From NCBI GenBank assembly GCA_023267535.1, contig JAHFNC010000005.1, positions 1-53,926 on the forward strand: a DNA stretch of 53,926 nt, written 5' to 3'. The position numbers were made by a program, and so were the translations under genes. The stretch is from a bacterium. Lineage in GTDB: Bacteria; Patescibacteriota; Minisyncoccia; Phycocordibacterales; UBA5272. The notes under the pieces were generated by a model that was not told the DNA's origin, ran no database searches, and was given only the letters and a program-made list of their open reading frames with translations. Below, piece after piece: positions 997 through 30,525 of the stretch (its first letter is position 1; each line of letters starts with the position of its first letter).

Positions 997-1536
997 TTAA
1001 CGCATGGGGAAACTTTGATTCTCAGGTGGAGGATTTAACTCTTTGGACATATCAACAAACTCATTTTTATCAAAAAAGAAAGCCCCTTCTACAATCTCAC
1101 TATTGATAAATTTTGGTAAGAAAATTTTATCTCCAGCCATCATCTCATCGTATGGAATAGCATTCATCTTAAAAAATTCAGGAGGCCCCATTTCATCGCC
1201 CTCTTTCGGAGTACCTTCATAATTTTCTACAAAATAAAAATACACTTCCATATCTGCTAAGTCTTTGGAAGTATTTCCTGGCCAAAAAAAAGAAATAACG
1301 CCGGTATACTCTAAATCTTTTTCGGTAATTTTTATTCCTGATTCATCAAACAGTTCACGAATAGCGGTTTCTGTTATAGTTTCGCCTTCTTCTTGCTTAC
1401 CACCATAACCATTCCATTTATCCAAACTTATTCCAAGAGTTCCGTCAGCGTGATGAATAGATTTCTTCTTTCTAGCCAAACAAATCTCCTCCCCTTTGAG
1501 TAGGAATACTACGGTGCATTTAGTTTTGGCTTGCAT
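997..1536 (-). CDS. NUDIX hydrolase
   Basis: Nudix box GGKQEEGETITETAIRELFDESG (GX5EX7REUXEEXGU pattern); 179 aa. Confidence 0.85.
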   Translation of the reverse strand: MQAKTKCTVVFLLKGEEICLARKKKSIHHADGTLGISLDKWNGYGGKQEEGETITETAIRELFDESGIKITEKDLEYTGVISFFWPGNTSKDLADMEVYFYFVENYEGTPKEGDEMGPPEFFKMNAIPYDEMMAGDKIFLPKFINSEIVEGAFFFDKNEFVDMSKELNPPPENQSFPMR

Positions 1537-1537
1537 A

Positions 1538-2098
1538 TTATTTTCTATTTTTTAGAGAAACAGTTAAAGAAAGAAGAATTAAAAATCCAAACAAAACAAA
1601 GGACATAAACGGAAATGATATGAATCCAAATTCCATAAATGATGGCTTGGCACAATCAACGGTGGATGCGACAACTGGGCATGGAATAAATTCTGAATAA
1701 CCCCACTGTAAGAAGCTATGGTAAAGAGCAACTATTTCACCAAAGATTGAAAGAATTAGTGTGTACGAGAAAATTTTGTAATCTTTTTTATAAAGAGCTA
1801 AAGCGTACAAAAATATTTGTGGATAAAGAGCTACTCTTTGAAACCAACAAAGTCCGCAAGGTAGAACTCCAAGATAATCAGAATAAAAAAGTGTAAGGGA
1901 AGCTGCACCTAATGTTCCTAAAAATCCAAAAGGTAAAGCATATCTATGTATAAAAGAAAAAAGTTTACACTCTTTTTTGGTAACAAATGAATAAATCAAA
2001 AGTAAAACCCAAATAACCAAAACGATTAAACCGACGATTGTAGCTATTGATAAATAGTAACTTAAAGAATCAATTAGGGGTTGTTTATCGTTAAACAT
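1538..2098 (-). CDS. Disulfide bond formation protein, DsbB/BdbC family
   Basis: Multi-TM protein with LPCGLCWFQRVALYP motif typical of BdbC/DsbB, plus a second Cys pair (CPVVASTVDC). Confidence 0.75.
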   Translation of the reverse strand: MFNDKQPLIDSLSYYLSIATIVGLIVLVIWVLLLIYSFVTKKECKLFSFIHRYALPFGFLGTLGAASLTLFYSDYLGVLPCGLCWFQRVALYPQIFLYALALYKKDYKIFSYTLILSIFGEIVALYHSFLQWGYSEFIPCPVVASTVDCAKPSFMEFGFISFPFMSFVLFGFLILLSLTVSLKNRK

Positions 2099-2129
2099 GA
2101 GAAAATTATAGCAGTTTTAAGGGGTATTT

Positions 2130-2157
2130 AAAAGCGCGACCGGAGGTCGCGCTTTTT
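2130..2157. terminator. Bidirectional intrinsic terminator
   Basis: aaaa-GCGCGAC-cggag-GTCGCGC-ttttt; 7-bp GC stem flanked by an A-run and a T-run. Confidence 0.7.
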
Positions 2158-2161
2158 ACAC

Positions 2162-2368
2162 CTAATGACAACCACCATGCGATGTCGGTCGTCCAATTGG
2201 ATGTTTTTCGATTTCTGAACCAAGACATTCAAAATAACAATCTTGGCAAACCTGATTACCATCAATCCTGTAATTACCTTCTTTGTCCATGACATCAAGA
2301 ACGTGACCACAGGAAGCTGGTTCTGGCTCACGAGGATCTTCCTCCAAGAATTGCTGGGCTGTTTTCAT
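2162..2368 (-). CDS. Small cysteine-rich hypothetical protein (68 aa)
   Basis: GGAGAAG SD about 6 nt upstream of the ATG. Cys pattern C-x27-CxxCxxxC...C. Followed by the terminator at 2130-2157. Confidence 0.5.
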   Translation of the reverse strand: MKTAQQFLEEDPREPEPASCGHVLDVMDKEGNYRIDGNQVCQDCYFECLGSEIEKHPIGRPTSHGGCH

Positions 2369-2417
2369 TGATCTTCTCCTTTCTTAATAAAGCAATACTA
2401 AACATAATCTATCATAT

Positions 2418-2454
2418 AAAAACAAAATCACATCAGGCGAAAGCGTGATGTGAT
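2418..2454 (-). terminator. Intrinsic terminator of the RT gene
   Basis: 9-bp stem atcacatca/tgatgtgat (2427-2435 / 2446-2454) capped by gc-GAAA-gc, followed on the minus strand by tttgttttt. Starts directly after the RT stop codon (2456-2458). Confidence 0.75.
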
Positions 2455-2455
2455 G

Positions 2456-3664
2456 TTAAAGCGGTGTAGTATTTGATACCGCTGATTCAAATTGTGAACA
2501 AAGAGCAAGAAGATTTCGGTCGCTTTTCGTTCTTACGGCGACGAAACGGGCATAATGTTTAAAATAAGTAACATGCCCTCTTAAAACATCCACATTACCT
2601 TCATGACGCGCAAGAAAAGTTCTTAGCATACCACGAAGTGCTCTACGCTTCTTTCCAGGAAAAGTAATTACCGCACCTCCGTTAATGTCAGTGGAAATTC
2701 CAAATCCAGTTATGGTGACTGTTCCTTGCCTCCTGTAAAGTACTTGTGATTTACGATGGTTAATCCCGAAGGAAGCAGAAGCCACAAACGCTCGTATTTT
2801 CTTTCTCACATCTTCCCAAATGGGGCGAAGTGAAGAAAAAACTAAATCGTCAGCATATTGCGAGAAGGTGATTTTTTTCTCACGGCAGAAATACCTTAGT
2901 GATTTATTAAGCATCATCTCGCAATATAAATTAAACAGATACGGCGACGACGGCGCTCCCGTGATGAGACCTCTTCCGTAAATGGAACGACAAAATGTTT
3001 CTACAAATCTTTTCATCCGAAGCATAAGTGGATCATTGAAGACTCCGTGTAGCACTTGATCTGACCGTATACCAAATCTCAAGTGATGGAAAAACTCATC
3101 GAGCTCCATCATGTACTTGTCGCTACGAACTAAGGCAACGAGAAGAACAGTCAGAAGGTCGGTGTTTAGCTCATCGTAAGCCTGACGAAAATCAATTTTG
3201 TAAAAATACTCGTTATTGATGTGAAGATTGGTATTCTGTATAGCTCTTGAACCAACAACAAAGGCTTTGGCAGAAGGTAATAAAACAAATCGCTTATACC
3301 TATCCCGCACATTAGAAGGAGTGCCTTCATCAATAAAGACCGCCAATTTGCTTTTGATAAAACTTTCAAAAAGTTTGTGAAGGATTTTCATCGGAAGATT
3401 TGGAGCACCTATATGGCGCCTTTTTATTATTCCGTTATTTCCTTCTTTAGAGACAACGTGAAATTCAAATCGTGGAATCATCCATCCTTTTTCAAAAACT
3501 TTTCCTTTCTTCGTCTCTGCTTTTTCTATGTTCTCAAGAATCAATTGAAGCTTTGTGAAAATAGAAAAAGGGTCAAGTTCTGGAACACCAACCGAAGAAA
3601 GCTTTGCCGTCATGTTCCTGACAAAGCTCGCTAGGTCTTTAGCTTTACTAATTTGCTTTGTCAT
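2456..3664 (-). CDS. Reverse transcriptase (stand-alone, 402 aa; retron-like / defence-RT-like, class unresolved)
   Basis: RT motifs: KRRHIGAPNLPMKILHKLF (RT1), GSRAIQNTNLH..FYKIDFRQAYD (RT2, NAxxH-like), GAPSSPYLFNLY (RT4), QYADDLVFSS (RT5), GINHRKSQV (RT6), VTITGFGIS (RT7). AGGAG lies 6 nt upstream of the ATG. Confidence 0.9.
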   Translation of the reverse strand: MTKQISKAKDLASFVRNMTAKLSSVGVPELDPFSIFTKLQLILENIEKAETKKGKVFEKGWMIPRFEFHVVSKEGNNGIIKRRHIGAPNLPMKILHKLFESFIKSKLAVFIDEGTPSNVRDRYKRFVLLPSAKAFVVGSRAIQNTNLHINNEYFYKIDFRQAYDELNTDLLTVLLVALVRSDKYMMELDEFFHHLRFGIRSDQVLHGVFNDPLMLRMKRFVETFCRSIYGRGLITGAPSSPYLFNLYCEMMLNKSLRYFCREKKITFSQYADDLVFSSLRPIWEDVRKKIRAFVASASFGINHRKSQVLYRRQGTVTITGFGISTDINGGAVITFPGKKRRALRGMLRTFLARHEGNVDVLRGHVTYFKHYARFVAVRTKSDRNLLALCSQFESAVSNTTPL

Positions 3665-4008
3665 TAGGAGCTCCTGTCAGAATAAATCAAAGAACGTAAA
3701 TCTCGGTATGGCACTGGGGAGAGTAAAAGGATAAACCTTATCCATACCGAAATGATGGGGTGCGCCCCGATGCTTCCATGGCGACCAGCGGTATCTCCTG
3801 CGTCAACTACGGAGAGCGTGCCGCCAAACTGCGCAAGTCGTCCGCCGAAGGCGGGGCACCCTAACAAAATGGAGCAATTAAGCCCCTTCTCACCACATCG
3901 CACACCTAAGCGTACTTACCATGATGAGATTTTACTGCTCTAATTTGAAACAGTTTATTACAATTCCCTCCACTCTTTTTTCCCCAGTGGCAGCCTCACA
4001 AGGAGGCA
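3665..4008 (-). ncRNA. RT-associated structured non-coding RNA (candidate msr/msd-like or DRT-type template RNA)
   Basis: Visibly GC-rich versus the AT-rich flanks. Many hairpins: gcctc/gaggc 3993-4007, CCGCC-ttc-GGCGG, GGGG-cgca-CCCC, tcggtatgg/ccataccga 3703-3711/3742-3750. Long-range inverted repeat cactgggga(gagt) 3712-3724 versus (actc)ttttttccccagtg 3972-3989. Several G-U pairs exist only in the minus sense. Confidence 0.55.
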
Positions 4009-4014
4009 AGAATA

Positions 4015-4043
4015 ATACTATAGAAATCACGAGGTGGTGTCAA
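4015..4043 (-). promoter_or_regulatory. Sigma70-type promoter for the ncRNA-RT unit
   Basis: Minus strand reads TTGACA (4043-4038), N17, TAGTAT (4020-4015). Predicted TSS is about 4008, at the first hairpin of the ncRNA. Confidence 0.5.
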
Positions 4044-4046
4044 ACT

Positions 4047-4077
4047 AAAAGGGCGACACCTTAGGTGTCGCCCTTTT
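4047..4077 (-). terminator. Intrinsic terminator after secF
   Basis: aaaaGGGCGACACCttaGGTGTCGCCCtttt. Confidence 0.8.
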
Positions 4078-4090
4078 AGTTATCAAACTG

Positions 4091-4981
4091 TTATTTCTTA
4101 TTCTTTAAATGTCTGTTATTCCACACCACTAACAATGGGCTTGCCACGAATATTGACGAATAAGTTCCAACAATCATTCCCATCATAAGAGTGAAAGCAA
4201 AAAACTTAGTGGTTACTGGACCAAACCAATAGAGAGCAACAAGAGCCAAAACAACGGTCACCGAAGTATTTATAGAGCGAGTAAAAGTTTGTCTTAAACT
4301 TATACCAACCACTTCGCCAAAATCTTTCTTAAGATTAAGTCTTAGGTTCTCGCGGATTCTATCAAACACCACAATCTTATCTGAAATAGAAATAGCAAGA
4401 ATTGTAAGAAGTGCAATCACAAACAATGTATCTATTTGTGCACCTCTTGCATAGGACAACCAAACATAAATTCCAGTTGGAAGTAAAATATCATGAACCA
4501 AAGTTACCATAGCGATGGTTCCATATTTCCAAGAAGAGACTGGTTTAGAAACTTCACGAAAGGCAAAGGCAATGAAAAGTAGAATTGCAAAAACAACAAT
4601 GACAATAGCAATTATAGCCTTCTTAGTCATTTCAGATCCCATGGTTGGACCAACAGAAACGATAGAGTCTTCTTTATATTGATACTGGTCGCCTTCTGTT
4701 AATATTGGCTTTATTTTAGAAGACATATCTTCATAACTCAAAGAAGAGATAAACTTGTAAGACGATGTTCCTGTTTGAAAGGCTTCAATTTGAAGCGTCT
4801 TGAATTGAGATAGTTCTACAGTTGAAGTCGGCGCAAGACCGACATAACTTGTTTCAATTATTGTTCCGCCAGTGAAGTCTATTCCCTTTTTGATTCCAAA
4901 TTTACTAATAGCAACAATTGAAATGATGGCAAGGGCAAGTGAGAGTCCGATGAATATTGATTTGTATTTTACGATAAACAT
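4091..4981 (-). CDS. secF: Protein translocase subunit SecF
   Basis: SecD/F-family TM bundle; immediately follows secD; 296 aa. Confidence 0.9.
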   Translation of the reverse strand: MFIVKYKSIFIGLSLALAIISIVAISKFGIKKGIDFTGGTIIETSYVGLAPTSTVELSQFKTLQIEAFQTGTSSYKFISSLSYEDMSSKIKPILTEGDQYQYKEDSIVSVGPTMGSEMTKKAIIAIVIVVFAILLFIAFAFREVSKPVSSWKYGTIAMVTLVHDILLPTGIYVWLSYARGAQIDTLFVIALLTILAISISDKIVVFDRIRENLRLNLKKDFGEVVGISLRQTFTRSINTSVTVVLALVALYWFGPVTTKFFAFTLMMGMIVGTYSSIFVASPLLVVWNNRHLKNKK

Positions 4982-9084: not shown

Positions 9085-9157
9085 GCATCCGTAGCTCAGT
9101 TGGTAGAGCGATTGTCTTATACACAATTGGCCCCTGGTTCGAGTCCAGGCGGATGCA
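9085..9157 (+). tRNA. tRNA-Ile (anticodon UAU)
   Basis: Manual cloverleaf: acceptor gcatccg/cggatgc, D gctc-agttggta-gagc, anticodon stem attgt/acaat with loop cTTATAc, T arm cctgg-ttcgagt-ccagg, discriminator A. CCA is not encoded. Confidence 0.85.
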
Positions 9158-9188
9158 CTTTGGGTAGAATGTTCGAATGCCCCTAAGA

Positions 9189-27090: not shown

Positions 27091-30000
27091 TTAGTTGATA
27101 GAGAATACGATATCACCAAAGGAAAGTTTTACAGTTGTTCCTTCTATGTTTTTATCTTCTTTTATTTCTCCAATTTTACAAGTGGCTTTTAGTAAATCTA
27201 AACTATTAAAATTAGACAAAGAAGAAACAGAAATATTTACAATATCTTTTGGTGATAATCCTTTTTCTTTACGGACATCTTGAATAGCACGCATAAGATT
27301 TCTAATATCTCCCTCTTTTATAAGTTCATCTGTTAAATTAATATCCAAAGAGACCTCTTCCCCTTTCTTTATTTCTTTAACATTTACTTCGTCTTTAATT
27401 ATTTCAAGATATTCATTTCCTAATTCTGTTTTTACATACAAAGTTTGTAATGGCTGACGAACAGCGATCTTACTTTCAGTTCTTTTCATCAAAGCTACCG
27501 AAACAATCTCTCTAGCTTCTTTCATGTAAGTAATAACTTCAGTGTCTATATTTCCTCCCTTTGGCCAGCTTTCTAAATGAACACTTTCTTTTTCACCGTC
27601 TAGTGTTTTGTATATTCTTTCTGATAAAAATGGCATAACTGGAGCTGTGACTTTGGCAAATTCAATTAATACAAATTTTAATGTTTGAGAGGATTTTACT
27701 TTTTCATTTTCCCCTTCATCGCCTTTTAATCTGCTTCTTGATCTTCTAACAAACCAAACAGATAAGTCATCAACGAATTGATCAACTGGACGAGTGGCTT
27801 CATCAAGACAATACTTTTGATAGCCAGCAGTTGTGCTTTTAATAACCTCATTAATTCTAGAAATTATCCATCTATCTAAAATATTTTTTGAATCAGATGA
27901 TGATTTTACATTATCAGTTTTGTTCATTTCGTATAATGACAAGACATTTTCCATTCTCAGTATTATTTTTTTGTATGATTCTTCAACCATATCGTCTGAG
28001 AAAGAAATATTTTCTCCTTTAACAACTGGAGATGAAAGTAAAACAAATCTAATAGCATCAACACCAAATTTTTCTGCTAACTCCATCGGATCAGTAAAAT
28101 TATTTTCACTCTTAGAAAGTTTTTTACCACCTTCTGCTAGAACAAGCCCGTTCACAATAACATTTTTGTACGGTGCTTTATCAAATAATCCGACCCCCAA
28201 GTTAATCAAAGAATAAAACCAACCCCGAGTCTGATCCATTCCTTCAGCAATAAATTCTGCTGGATAACTTTTTTCAAAAAGTTTTTTATTTTCAAATGGA
28301 TAGTGAATAGAGGCGAAAGGCATAGAACCAGACTCAAACCAACAATCAAAGACATCTGGGATTCTTTTCATGTCTTCTCCTTTGCTGTCTGTAATAACTA
28401 CTTCATCTATATATGGACGATGAAGATTTACTGCCCCAGTTTCATCACGAGGAACAATTTTATAATTTATCTTTCTTATTTCAGCATTATCCAAATACAA
28501 ATTACCTGACCGAATATTTTCCTCTGCCAATATAGACTCTTCTGTTAAAAGTTCAGAGCCTACTATCATCATCCTGGCTGGACTACCGTGAGTTACAAAT
28601 AAAATATTTTTATTTGTATAATTTTTCTCGCAATCCATTATGACGCTCATTACTCTATTCATTACATCTTGATGTGATTCCCCTCCTTCTATTGTGTAAT
28701 TAAATTGTAGATATTTTTTACCAACTTCTTTTTCTAAGACTCCAACATCTTTTCCGTCATATATTCCGGCATTATCTTCAGACAATCTATTATCAAAAAT
28801 AACTTCTTTATTATCTTTTATAATCTCAGCGGTTTCTTTGGCACGAATAACAGGCGATGAAAACATTACATCAATATTTAAATCTTTTACATAATCTTTC
28901 TGCTTTTCTACTTGAAATTTACCATCTTCTGTAAGATGATTATTGGTATCGTTTCCTTTATCAACCATATGAAAGACATTAGAATTTGCTTGTCCGTGGC
29001 GCATCACATAGTATGTATTTTTTGGTTTTTGTTTATTTCTTTCGGCAAGTTCAACAAGTGACCCAATCATTGTGACTTCATTCTCTGATTTCCAAACAGG
29101 AAGTGGGGCTCCCCAATATCTTGTTCTTGATACCGCCCACTCTCTTGCGCCTTCCAACCACTTTCCAAATCGCCCATCACGAATATGTTCTGGAGTCCAA
29201 CCGATTTTACTATTTTCCGAAAGCAATTTTTCCTTCATCTTTGGAACATCAACAAACCAGGAAGATGTCGCGTAATTTAGAAGCGGAGTTTTACATCTCC
29301 AACAAAGTGGATAGGAGTGAATCAATTTTTCTTTAGCAAAAAGTTTTCCATTGTGGGCCAACCATTTTATTATTTCTATATCAGCTGATTGTGTGTCCCC
29401 TACTTTCTTTACTTTCATTCCGGCAAAGTCGGTAACTTCTTCTGTAAACTCGCCATTCATTTTTACGTGCTTAATTATTGGAAGATTATTTTCTTTCGCT
29501 AAATTCATATCATCTTCTCCAAAAGCAGGCGCAATGTGAACGACTCCAGTTCCGGTTTCTGTGGTTACAAAATCTGCTCCCCAAATTTTATAAATATTTT
29601 CTTTGTTTTTTATCTCAGCCTTTTCAAAATAATTAAATAAAGATTTATAGGCTTTACCAATTAACTTTTCTCCTTTAAATTCATCAACAATTTTGTGGTC
29701 TGGGCTATTTTTAAAAACATCCTCCATCCTATCTTTTGCAACAATAAAATTGTTGCTGACGCCTTCGGTTACACTTTCAACTTTTACATAATCAATATCT
29801 TTACCAATAGCTAAAGCGACATTCCCAGGAAGTGTCCAAGGAGTAGTAGTCCAGGCTAAAATAAAAGTATTTGGCTCGTCAACTAACTCAAACTTGGCAG
29901 TGACAGAAATATCAGTAACATCTTCGTAATTCATTCCGACTTCTGATTGAGCAAGTGGAGTCTCACATCTTGGACAAATGTGCATCATCTTATTCCCTTC

Positions 30001-30525
30001 GTAAGCTAACCCTTTGTTGTGTAACTCCTTCCACGCCCACCAAATACTTTCGGTATAAGTTGCATCCATTGTTTTGTATGGATGTTCCATATCTACAAAT
30101 CTTCCGAATCTTGGAATAACATCTTTCCATTCTTTATCATAAGTAAGCACACTTTCATAAGCTTCTTTATTAAACTTATCAATTCCGTATTCTTCAATAT
30201 CTTTCTTTGATGATAGATTTAATTTCTTTTCAATTAAATTTTCAATTGGAAGACCGTGACAATCCCAACCCCAAACACGACGAACCCTCTTTCCGTTCAT
30301 TGTTTCGTATCTTGGAATTGCATCTTTAATTGTGCCGGCTAAAATATGCCCAAAGTGTGGTAGCCCTGTAGCAAAAGGAGGCCCGTCATAAAAAGAAAAA
30401 TCTCCAATCGGTTCACCATCCGCAGGAGTTTCTACAGATTTTTCAAAAATCTTATTTTCTTTCCAAAAAGAAAGAACTTCAACTTCTTTTTCATTTACAG
30501 TCTTAGCTTTTTTAGAATCTGACAT
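27091..30525 (-). CDS. ileS: Isoleucyl-tRNA synthetase with inserted histidine-phosphatase domain
   Basis: GLPHFGH (HIGH), editing-domain TTTPWTLPGN, KLSKS, DCWFESGSMP. Extra RHG...SSPVIRAKETA...FVTHG domain inserted at about nt 28440-29040. Confidence 0.93.
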   Translation of the reverse strand: MSDSKKAKTVNEKEVEVLSFWKENKIFEKSVETPADGEPIGDFSFYDGPPFATGLPHFGHILAGTIKDAIPRYETMNGKRVRRVWGWDCHGLPIENLIEKKLNLSSKKDIEEYGIDKFNKEAYESVLTYDKEWKDVIPRFGRFVDMEHPYKTMDATYTESIWWAWKELHNKGLAYEGNKMMHICPRCETPLAQSEVGMNYEDVTDISVTAKFELVDEPNTFILAWTTTPWTLPGNVALAIGKDIDYVKVESVTEGVSNNFIVAKDRMEDVFKNSPDHKIVDEFKGEKLIGKAYKSLFNYFEKAEIKNKENIYKIWGADFVTTETGTGVVHIAPAFGEDDMNLAKENNLPIIKHVKMNGEFTEEVTDFAGMKVKKVGDTQSADIEIIKWLAHNGKLFAKEKLIHSYPLCWRCKTPLLNYATSSWFVDVPKMKEKLLSENSKIGWTPEHIRDGRFGKWLEGAREWAVSRTRYWGAPLPVWKSENEVTMIGSLVELAERNKQKPKNTYYVMRHGQANSNVFHMVDKGNDTNNHLTEDGKFQVEKQKDYVKDLNIDVMFSSPVIRAKETAEIIKDNKEVIFDNRLSEDNAGIYDGKDVGVLEKEVGKKYLQFNYTIEGGESHQDVMNRVMSVIMDCEKNYTNKNILFVTHGSPARMMIVGSELLTEESILAEENIRSGNLYLDNAEIRKINYKIVPRDETGAVNLHRPYIDEVVITDSKGEDMKRIPDVFDCWFESGSMPFASIHYPFENKKLFEKSYPAEFIAEGMDQTRGWFYSLINLGVGLFDKAPYKNVIVNGLVLAEGGKKLSKSENNFTDPMELAEKFGVDAIRFVLLSSPVVKGENISFSDDMVEESYKKIILRMENVLSLYEMNKTDNVKSSSDSKNILDRWIISRINEVIKSTTAGYQKYCLDEATRPVDQFVDDLSVWFVRRSRSRLKGDEGENEKVKSSQTLKFVLIEFAKVTAPVMPFLSERIYKTLDGEKESVHLESWPKGGNIDTEVITYMKEAREIVSVALMKRTESKIAVRQPLQTLYVKTELGNEYLEIIKDEVNVKEIKKGEEVSLDINLTDELIKEGDIRNLMRAIQDVRKEKGLSPKDIVNISVSSLSNFNSLDLLKATCKIGEIKEDKNIEGTTVKLSFGDIVFSIN

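Follow-up and report, generated by a model that had tools for sequence, protein, structure and literature searches.

The locus considered here raises the question of what a reverse transcriptase (RT) gene may be doing in a bacterial genome when a large structured RNA precedes it and no effector gene accompanies it. It lies at positions 2,418 to 4,043 of contig JAHFNC010000005.1 (GenBank assembly GCA_023267535.1), from a bacterium of the Patescibacteriota; the whole stretch analysed, 53,926 nucleotides of the forward strand, is referred to as the window. An original prediction, made from the letters of the window alone, had proposed an RNA-templated defence RT with the single-gene architecture of the DRT2 and DRT9 systems, possibly of an undescribed clade. 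The present analysis favours another placement. The locus is probably a stand-alone retron-type cassette, in which a promoter of its own, a non-coding RNA (ncRNA) of msr-msd-like layout and an RT of the retron clade share one transcript, without an effector. Judged by sequence comparison, it represents a small branch of the retron family that had not been described before. The category of stand-alone retrons is already known; the novelty lies in the lineage, in the larger and distinctive RNA and in the host range.

All parts of the cassette are encoded on the minus strand, in the order promoter, structured leader of about 345 nt, AGGAG-N6-ATG, RT open reading frame (ORF), and hairpin with a U-tract. 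The promoter, the RNA of about 340 nt, the ribosome-binding site and the 402-aa protein with its YADD motif were found where the original prediction had placed them. The individual features are as follows.

4015 to 4043, minus strand: sigma-70-type promoter (TTGACA at 4043-4038, 17-nt spacer, TAGTAT at 4020-4015).
3993 to 4007, minus strand: small 5'-terminal hairpin, GCCUC-CUUGU-GAGGC, from folding.
3965 to 3989, minus strand: 5' strand of the closing helix P1, composed of P1a (CACUGGGGA, 3989-3981), a 5-nt bulge and P1b (GAGUGGAGGGA, 3975-3965).
3935 to 3953, minus strand: variable hairpin P2, within the interval from P1 to P3.
3867 to 3933, minus strand: conserved core P3/P4, from covariance model R1, covariation and detection across subclades.
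3758 to 3861, minus strand: long imperfect GC-rich hairpin, 104 nt (67% GC, measured over a stretch of 106 nt).
3700 to 3753, minus strand: 3' domain, with the S3 arms, a linker and the 3' strands of P1.
3689 to 3695, minus strand: conserved GUUCUUU pyrimidine tract, past S3 and ahead of the ribosome-binding site.
3671 to 3675, minus strand: Shine-Dalgarno sequence AGGAG, 6 nt ahead of the ATG at 3664.
2456 to 3664, minus strand: RT gene, 402 aa, from RVT_1, motifs and predicted fold.
2417 to 2454, minus strand: terminator-like hairpin (2454-2427) followed by UUUUGUUUUU, from folding.

Transcription is predicted to start near position 4008. With 10 of 12 matches, the cassette promoter is the top-scoring site within 1900-4400; the number of such sites in this region is not above chance (4 found vs 5.4 expected). 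A comparable -35/-10 pair of the TTGAC(A/T) type stands directly ahead of the RNA in nearly all homologous loci, and RNA and RT are probably co-transcribed. At the other end, the hairpin begins 2 nt past the RT stop codon, folds with -13.6 kcal/mol (z = -4.1) and precedes UUUUGUUUUU. The terminator of the original prediction is thus present, but its description as strong was overstated: the hairpin is A/U-rich, has a 10-nt loop and was missed by a consensus terminator scan, and is better graded as plausible.

The first step towards an answer is the class of the enzyme. RVT_1 is the sole Pfam domain of the RT, in keeping with the earlier claim that it carries no additional domain, and the protein ends after the thumb without an effector domain. 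The catalytic residues D158 and Y270-A-D-D273, the latter within the motif QYADDLVFS, are kept in the family alignment, and the N-terminal 65 residues form two helices that are absent from other family members. Retron RTs are characterized by two regions, X and Y (Mestre et al., 2020; PMC7736814). Region X reads N144-T-N-L-H148, 10 residues ahead of the catalytic D158; across 18 sequences H148 is invariant and N144 nearly so, the consensus is N-V-x-x-H, and the A position is unconserved. Region Y reads I318-T319-G320 in the RT of the window, with T319 invariant.

Profile searches point in the same direction. The best PADLOC models were those of retron types II-A (80 bits), III-A (75 bits) and I-B (70 bits) and the Ec107-like model (65.9 bits), and the top 25 comprised 24 retron RT models and one CRISPR-associated RT model (45.9 bits). 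Among NCBIfam models, retron_St85_RT scored 86.6 bits (cut-off 235), the group II maturase TIGR04416 34.8 bits (cut-off 300) and Drt2 NF041746 20.4 bits (cut-off 390). When the family profile was run against PDB sequences, the RTs of retrons Ec83, Ec86, Ec78 and Ec67 were matched at 1e-17 to 1e-14, and the same search returned DRT2 (9c0i) at E = 1.4e-5 and 9ioa at about 1e-5, a chain presumably of DRT9, as 9ioa entries recur as DRT9 in the fold search. In that search, carried out with an AlphaFold2 model of the RT (predicted local distance difference test score, pLDDT, 91.5), the top match was Retron-Eco2 (Foldseek E = 3e-12) and the nine best PDB matches were all retron RTs (Eco2, Eco7, I-A, Ec86, Ec83); DRT2 ranked 23rd and the DRT9 structures 26th or lower. 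On the strength of profiles and modelled fold, the enzyme is a member of the retron clade and not a DRT2/DRT9, group II or diversity-generating retroelement (DGR) RT. The RT does not cluster with group II RTs. As for DRT2 and DRT9, the likeness seen in the original prediction holds for the gene architecture only, since the RT is related to theirs by the generic RT fold (Drt2 20 vs 390 bits).

The second step is the RNA. The leader, at about 4008-3665, has a GC content of 49%, with a peak of 56.5% at 3701-3900, compared with 35.5% for the window; its minimum free energy is -125.6 kcal/mol (z = -2.69), and 2 of 100 shuffles fold as well. The RNA is closed by P1, in which P1a pairs CACUGGGGA with UCCCCAGUG and P1b pairs GAGUGGAGGGA with UCCUUUUACUC, and by analogy the 5' strand of P1 is the counterpart of a retron flanking inverted repeat. 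In the core, P3 is formed by UCUCAUCAUG...UGUGGUGAGA and contains an inner hairpin and a loop, GGUAAG, that is conserved, and P4 is formed by GGGGC-loop-GCUCC; this core is likely the RT recognition module, comparable to msr, and the GC-rich hairpin at 3861-3758 is a candidate for the msd-like template. The 3' domain opens with the S3 5' arm (AUUUCGGUAUGG, 3753-3742), passes through the linker to the 3' strands of P1b (3731-3721) and P1a (UCCCCAGUG, 3720-3712), and ends with the S3 3' arm (CCAUACCGAGAU, 3711-3700). Because the S3 hairpin encloses the P1 3' strand in its loop and its 3' arm abuts P1, the topology is that of a pseudoknot. An ORF of 79 aa within the leader (3903-3664) was compared with an ORF in the related locus L009 and rejected as a gene, because the 41% identity over 32 aa covers the P3/P4 RNA core and the rest cannot be aligned.

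The comparison covered 17 distinct loci. The upstream region is complete in 16, and each of these carries a homologous RNA of common layout. Each locus has a gene-free stretch of 390-520 nt ahead of the RT, and the order is P1, a variable hairpin region, the P3/P4 core, a GC-rich hairpin, S3, the pyrimidine tract and the ribosome-binding site. The small 5'-terminal hairpin recurs at the same position in several subclade-1 RNAs. P1, the retron-like inverted repeat that had been predicted, is present in 16/16 RNAs and is usually bipartite: between P1a and P1b the 5' strand, but not the 3' strand, has a bulge or an additional hairpin. In P1a, 8 of 9 pairs show compensatory changes, one column containing UA, CG, AU and GC, and 92.9% of cells pair vs 33-52% with a slid partner, a percentage that is partly circular because the mini-alignment was cut in the pairing register. 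A test independent of that alignment took the best helix that each RNA forms between its 5' and 3' regions (P1a or P1b); in 13 of the 16 RNAs it outscored shuffles of matched composition (p <= 0.04). S3 adjoins the P1 3' strand in every RNA of the set and beats shuffles at p < 0.05 in 10/16.

The core is conserved, with the consensus AUCAURGYAAG-hairpin-UGUGGU for P3 and AGGGGC-loop-GCUCC for P4. Compensatory changes occur at 5 of 8 pairs in P3, where 97.7% of cells are paired, and at 3/3 pairs of its inner hairpin; P4 is conserved in sequence and shows little covariation. Covariance model R1 of the core has a single match in the window (3933-3867, 68 bits, E = 1.9e-15). In a set of 253 loci, which total 2.1 Mb and for the most part belong to other retron-like RTs, it matches those of the family and no others. 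A second model, R2, built from subclade 1 only, locates the RNA correctly in 4 of 5 subclade-2 loci (E = 7e-7 to 2e-4), whose RTs are 34-44% identical, with the best control match at E = 2.4. A covariance-model search at E <= 1 did not find the core motif in the distant RT relatives L015 and L016. The upstream RNA is thus conserved with covariation in homologous loci, which bears out the earlier proposal of a dedicated ncRNA. The GC-rich hairpin region behaves otherwise: it spans 92-190 nt at 56-76% GC, is unconserved in sequence and length, and shows indels between close relatives. Variable sequence, variable length and indels are the expected behaviour of retron msd regions.

Two further elements of the RNA deserve attention. 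Motifs of the form GUA[G/A/U] are threefold enriched between P1 and P3 (3935-3989 in the window, and the family loci), a count matched by 0 of 2000 shuffles; UGUAGCAAA and AGUAUCAC are frequent forms, and in L009 the motif is duplicated in tandem. The motifs may mark the surroundings of a priming G or serve as repeats to which a protein binds. In addition, three loci (L251, L006 and L253) contain a canonical terminator hairpin with U-tract between the ncRNA and the RT ORF (at about 1120-1160 in L251), where the window has the pyrimidine tract alone. The 5' arm of this terminator overlaps the S3 3' arm, an overlap suggestive of two alternative transcripts, one with the RNA alone and one that includes the RT, and a terminator/antiterminator switch is possible in these three loci.

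The third step concerns what accompanies the pair and where the family occurs. No neighbouring gene is conserved across the 17 loci, whose contexts include secF, dnaJ/dnaK, dnaE, UvrD, a release-factor region and a glyoxalase gene, and an all-against-all comparison of flanking ORFs revealed local synteny between related genomes only. The small ORFs adjacent to the cassette gave no PADLOC or Pfam effector match. Candidate effectors among the neighbours were rejected: the Nudix protein, which matched PDC-S07 of PADLOC at only 22 bits over a short stretch including the Nudix box, and the 68-aa ORF, DsbB and other neighbours, with no PADLOC match. The absence of an effector gene or domain, as originally described, therefore stands.

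A word-indexed search returned 17 relatives only, at 32-48% identity, and an exhaustive profile search of 1.84 billion representative proteins yielded about 45 clusters (50% identity) with a single-stretch match over most or all of the RT. These clusters reach down to about 1e-58, and ordinary 300-aa retron-like RTs, themselves untyped by PADLOC at about 100 bits, start near 1e-50. The labelled genomes are metagenome-assembled genomes (MAGs) of Parcubacteria and Saccharibacteria, and a further, GC-rich group comes from a short contig assigned to a Bdellovibrionales bin; more distant stand-alone relatives (28-33% identity) come from Patescibacteria and Saccharibacteria MAGs. Going by these labels, the family resides mostly in Patescibacteria, the bacteria of the candidate phyla radiation (CPR). 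The undescribed clade of largely CPR-type genomes that had been suspected is supported; the family fits no typed retron model, and its labelled members are mostly CPR MAGs. One distant relative, L016 (5216-6765; Saccharibacteria MAG, 28% identity), is stand-alone, reads YLDD for YADD and has a GC-rich gene-free stretch upstream of 340-570 nt, depending on the start codon chosen; the L3-L4-L23-L2 ribosomal protein genes follow some 0.9 kb downstream of its RT, past a single ORF on the opposite strand. In the 'Bdellovibrionales' member L007, a phage Mu Gam-like gene (1747-2286, minus strand) is convergent with the RT, and it was unseen in the other loci.

Stand-alone (msr-msd)-RT cassettes are known from the Retron-Eco5/Ec107 branch of RT clade 2 and from clade 11; they count as retrons, and effectors acting in trans or another function were left open for them (Mestre et al., 2020; PMC7736814). 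The statement of the original prediction that retrons need an effector is consequently too strong. The present family shares with both groups a retron-clade RT, a contiguous upstream ncRNA, the lack of an associated effector gene and an unassigned function, and in some cases a restricted taxonomy with signs of vertical inheritance. It differs in its hosts, mostly Patescibacteria instead of mostly Gammaproteobacteria and Actinobacteria, and in an RNA that is larger, with a conserved core of its own, a 3' pseudoknot hairpin and no Rfam match. Since the PADLOC RT_Ec107-like model reaches only 65.9 bits, the family is a lineage apart from Ec107-like retrons. The tripartite retrons of types I-XIII (e.g., Ec86/Eco1, Ec78/Eco7 and Ec83) provide the closest RTs by profile and fold and have in common with the cassette region X (N-x3-H), region Y (V/I-T-G) and an ncRNA encoded upstream in the same orientation, which combines a long variable hairpin with inverted repeats at its flanks; unlike them, the cassette has no effector gene or fused domain, reaches no type-specific model, and contains no branching G that could be located. 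Retron-Eco2 (Ec67, type I-C, 'minimal') likewise consists of one protein-coding gene and an ncRNA, but its RT carries a C-terminal Toprim nuclease effector domain, whereas the present one ends after the thumb. The protease-less type XI-like retrons of a 2026 preprint belong to other lineages and have accessory genes, and literature searches found no paper linking retrons to Patescibacteria or CPR bacteria.

Taken as a stand-alone retron, the cassette could work as follows. The RT would be translated from the 3' part of the transcript and would bind its own 5' leader at the P3/P4 core and at the P1/S3 junction. P1 would act as the a1/a2 repeats of retrons, placing a priming nucleotide of the 5' part beside the template, just upstream of the P1 3' strand. 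The RT would then copy the variable GC-rich hairpin into a single-stranded, hairpin-forming complementary DNA (cDNA) of about 100-190 nt, comparable to retron multicopy single-stranded DNA (msDNA). The reading is based on the anatomy of the locus, the conservation and covariation of the RNA, the retron affinity of the RT, its intact catalytic residues and the lack of a conserved partner gene; from these we infer cDNA synthesis, the mode of priming and a biological role. As to the role, the RT-RNA-DNA particle alone could sense phages or act as a decoy against them, it could work together with an effector from another locus, or the cassette could have been domesticated for a purpose other than defence.

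Several observations weigh against this reading. Some family members read VTK or VTN in region Y, with a G two residues later, and no retron family model reaches its cut-off, the PADLOC scores of about 80 bits fitting no type from I to XIII. At the inner end of P1 the family RNAs share no G at a fixed position after P1a or P1b, and Rfam 15 gave no match in the leader (gathering scores over the window; E <= 10 over 3600-4100). The family RNA is considerably longer than the retron ncRNAs known to us, and we know of no described retron with a conserved pseudoknot-type 3' hairpin. Housekeeping genes, and not defence islands, surround the loci, and RT and neighbours diverge in step, which is atypical for defence systems. 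Lastly, the making of cDNA by the cassette is itself deduced from its anatomy.

The most novel alternative is the following. The cassette would be an ancient, largely vertically inherited, effector-free RT-ncRNA pair of ultra-small episymbionts, in which either the cDNA or the ribonucleoprotein is the active agent, following a principle like that of DRT9 and DRT2 but arisen independently in the retron clade, or the pair serves a non-defence cellular function; the 3' pseudoknot and terminator would then switch between RNA alone and RT. This proposal is offered tentatively, as an idea with a modest minority of the probability behind it. Two rival explanations lie close to its two parts.

In the first rival, the logic of DRT2 and DRT9 evolved inside the retron clade, so that RT and ncRNA are the whole system and the product of reverse transcription is the effector. 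DRT2 (UG2) and DRT9 (UG28) likewise pair an RT with a large structured ncRNA and have no effector gene, and in both the cDNA product itself is the effector. The product here could be a concatemeric cDNA giving rise to a new gene, or a homopolymer or long single-stranded DNA (ssDNA) sequestering phage proteins, and not a 2'-5' branched msDNA guarding a toxin. The two-component organization without an effector in 17/17 loci, the large and elaborate RNA, the conserved pyrimidine tract after the structured part, the recurrent short GUA-containing motifs in the 5' part and the lack of a located branching G would all suit such a system. Against it, the RT is far from those of DRT2 and DRT9, which belong to the UG/Abi lineage; the UG28-type RT has about 500 aa, and no DRT model is among the best 25 PADLOC matches of the present RT. 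The pyrimidine tract is short and interrupted, and there is no sign of a rolling-circle or homopolymer template. A DRT2-like coding template was also considered and found unlikely, given a region of 92-190 nt with indels between close relatives: with its sequence unconserved and its length not a multiple of three, the central region holds no conserved ORF, and stop-free frames are uninformative at 56-76% GC. Overall, a DRT-like logic is unlikely.

The second rival concerns role, and is compatible with the proposed cDNA mechanism. It holds that a retron-like element has been domesticated and is inherited vertically for a non-defence cellular function, for instance in nucleic-acid metabolism of reduced genomes. 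The loci are flanked by housekeeping genes (secDF, dnaJ/dnaK, dnaE, the release-factor region, and a ribosomal protein operon in the distant relative L016), and synteny is retained while RT and neighbours diverge in step, as the identities in four genome pairs indicate.

Window and L009: RT 48%; DsbB 58%, Nudix 50%.
L006 and L251: RT 68%; DnaE 82%.
L005 and L007: RT 78%; neighbour 84%.
L012 and L013: RT 64%; neighbours 70-73%.

Because RT identity tracks neighbour identity in these pairs, long residence is indicated rather than recent transfer, and the acquisition suggested in the original prediction is not supported; nor is the GC contrast with the surroundings a sign of acquisition, as the high GC stems from RNA structure. 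No family member was found in 2.9 million viral contigs, where the best match was 25% identical, and a non-defence possibility has been raised for vertically inherited retrons (Mestre et al., 2020; PMC7736814). On the other side, the family is scarce and patchily distributed (about 45 clusters among 1.84 billion representatives), its context differs between deeper branches, and one member is apparently frameshifted (L013/L014). To our knowledge, moreover, all retron-clade systems of known role act in defence. Domestication is improbable as the explanation of the role. In the frameshifted member itself, the RT frame of L013 is broken near the C-terminus (about 1650-1793), identically in L014; the MAG contigs have about 1.1-1.3x coverage, and the break is either a pseudogene or a sequencing error.

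A third alternative would reduce the upstream RNA to a cis-regulatory leader of the RT mRNA, either an autoregulatory site or a terminator/antiterminator switch, without a role as template. The canonical terminator overlapping the S3 3' arm in three loci is what such a leader might contain, and the conserved elements stop just ahead of the ribosome-binding site. Nevertheless, the RT would be left without a substrate, some 300-450 nt with a large, fast-evolving GC-rich hairpin exceed the needs of a leader, and flanking inverted repeats around a variable hairpin fit the layout of a retron template, so that this explanation is very unlikely. A mobile retroelement or its remnant (group II intron, group II-like G2L-type RT) or a DGR is barely credible: the module lies on different sides of dsbB in two related genomes, group II RTs are among the structural matches and DGRs are common in CPR bacteria, but TIGR04416 stays at 34.8 vs 300 bits, no Rfam intron family matches even at E <= 10, the element is single-copy in the window (no second RT or RNA was found) and missing from viral contigs, no part of the leader recurs in the 54-kb window as a template/variable repeat pair would, and neither terminal repeats nor an integrase is present.

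The stand-alone retron-type cassette thus remains the preferred reading, and its surroundings can be described briefly. The position assigned to it originally, between the secF terminator and small genes in an AT-rich housekeeping region, is correct (35.5% GC for the window, and a terminator belonging to secF). Upstream are secF (4981-4091) and secD. The secF intrinsic terminator reads GGGCGACACC-UAAG-GGUGUCGCCC with a U-tract, and the cassette promoter begins right after it; partial, sub-threshold Rfam matches to 'CsrC', 'DapZ' and similar families (4019-4100) correspond to this hairpin only. Downstream follow the 68-aa ORF, DsbB, a Nudix gene and the 16S rRNA gene. The 68-aa ORF (2162-2368, minus strand) is Cys-rich, has a strong ribosome-binding site of its own just past the RT terminator, gave no Pfam or PADLOC match and has no counterpart beside other family RTs. 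The dsbB-Nudix block is common to L009 (204-2838) and the window (997-4043); the cassette stands between dsbB and Nudix in L009 and upstream of the 68-aa ORF and dsbB in the window, a difference that points to local rearrangement or independent insertion. The rest of the window carries housekeeping genes, among them FtsH, an RNase J-like protein, isoleucyl- and arginyl-tRNA synthetases (IleRS, ArgRS) and ABC transporters. Two of its features stand apart from the cassette. A tRNA-Ile with anticodon TAT (UAU) lies at 9085-9158 (plus strand); such a tRNA is a rare way to read AUA and usually accompanies the absence of TilS. The IleRS-like class I aminoacyl-tRNA synthetase, of 1144 aa (27091-30525, minus strand), has a histidine-phosphatase domain, His_Phos_1 (residues 506-654), inserted between the halves of its catalytic domain.

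The role of effector-less, or 'orphan', retrons has been an open question since 2020, and the present family offers a compact test case with rich comparative data and a defined RNA architecture whose helices can be tested. Its hosts add to its relevance, the defence repertoire and RNA biology of CPR bacteria being poorly known. Should the RT indeed make a long, GC-rich hairpin ssDNA, a single-gene cassette of about 1.6 kb could also be of interest for work on ssDNA production and genome editing.

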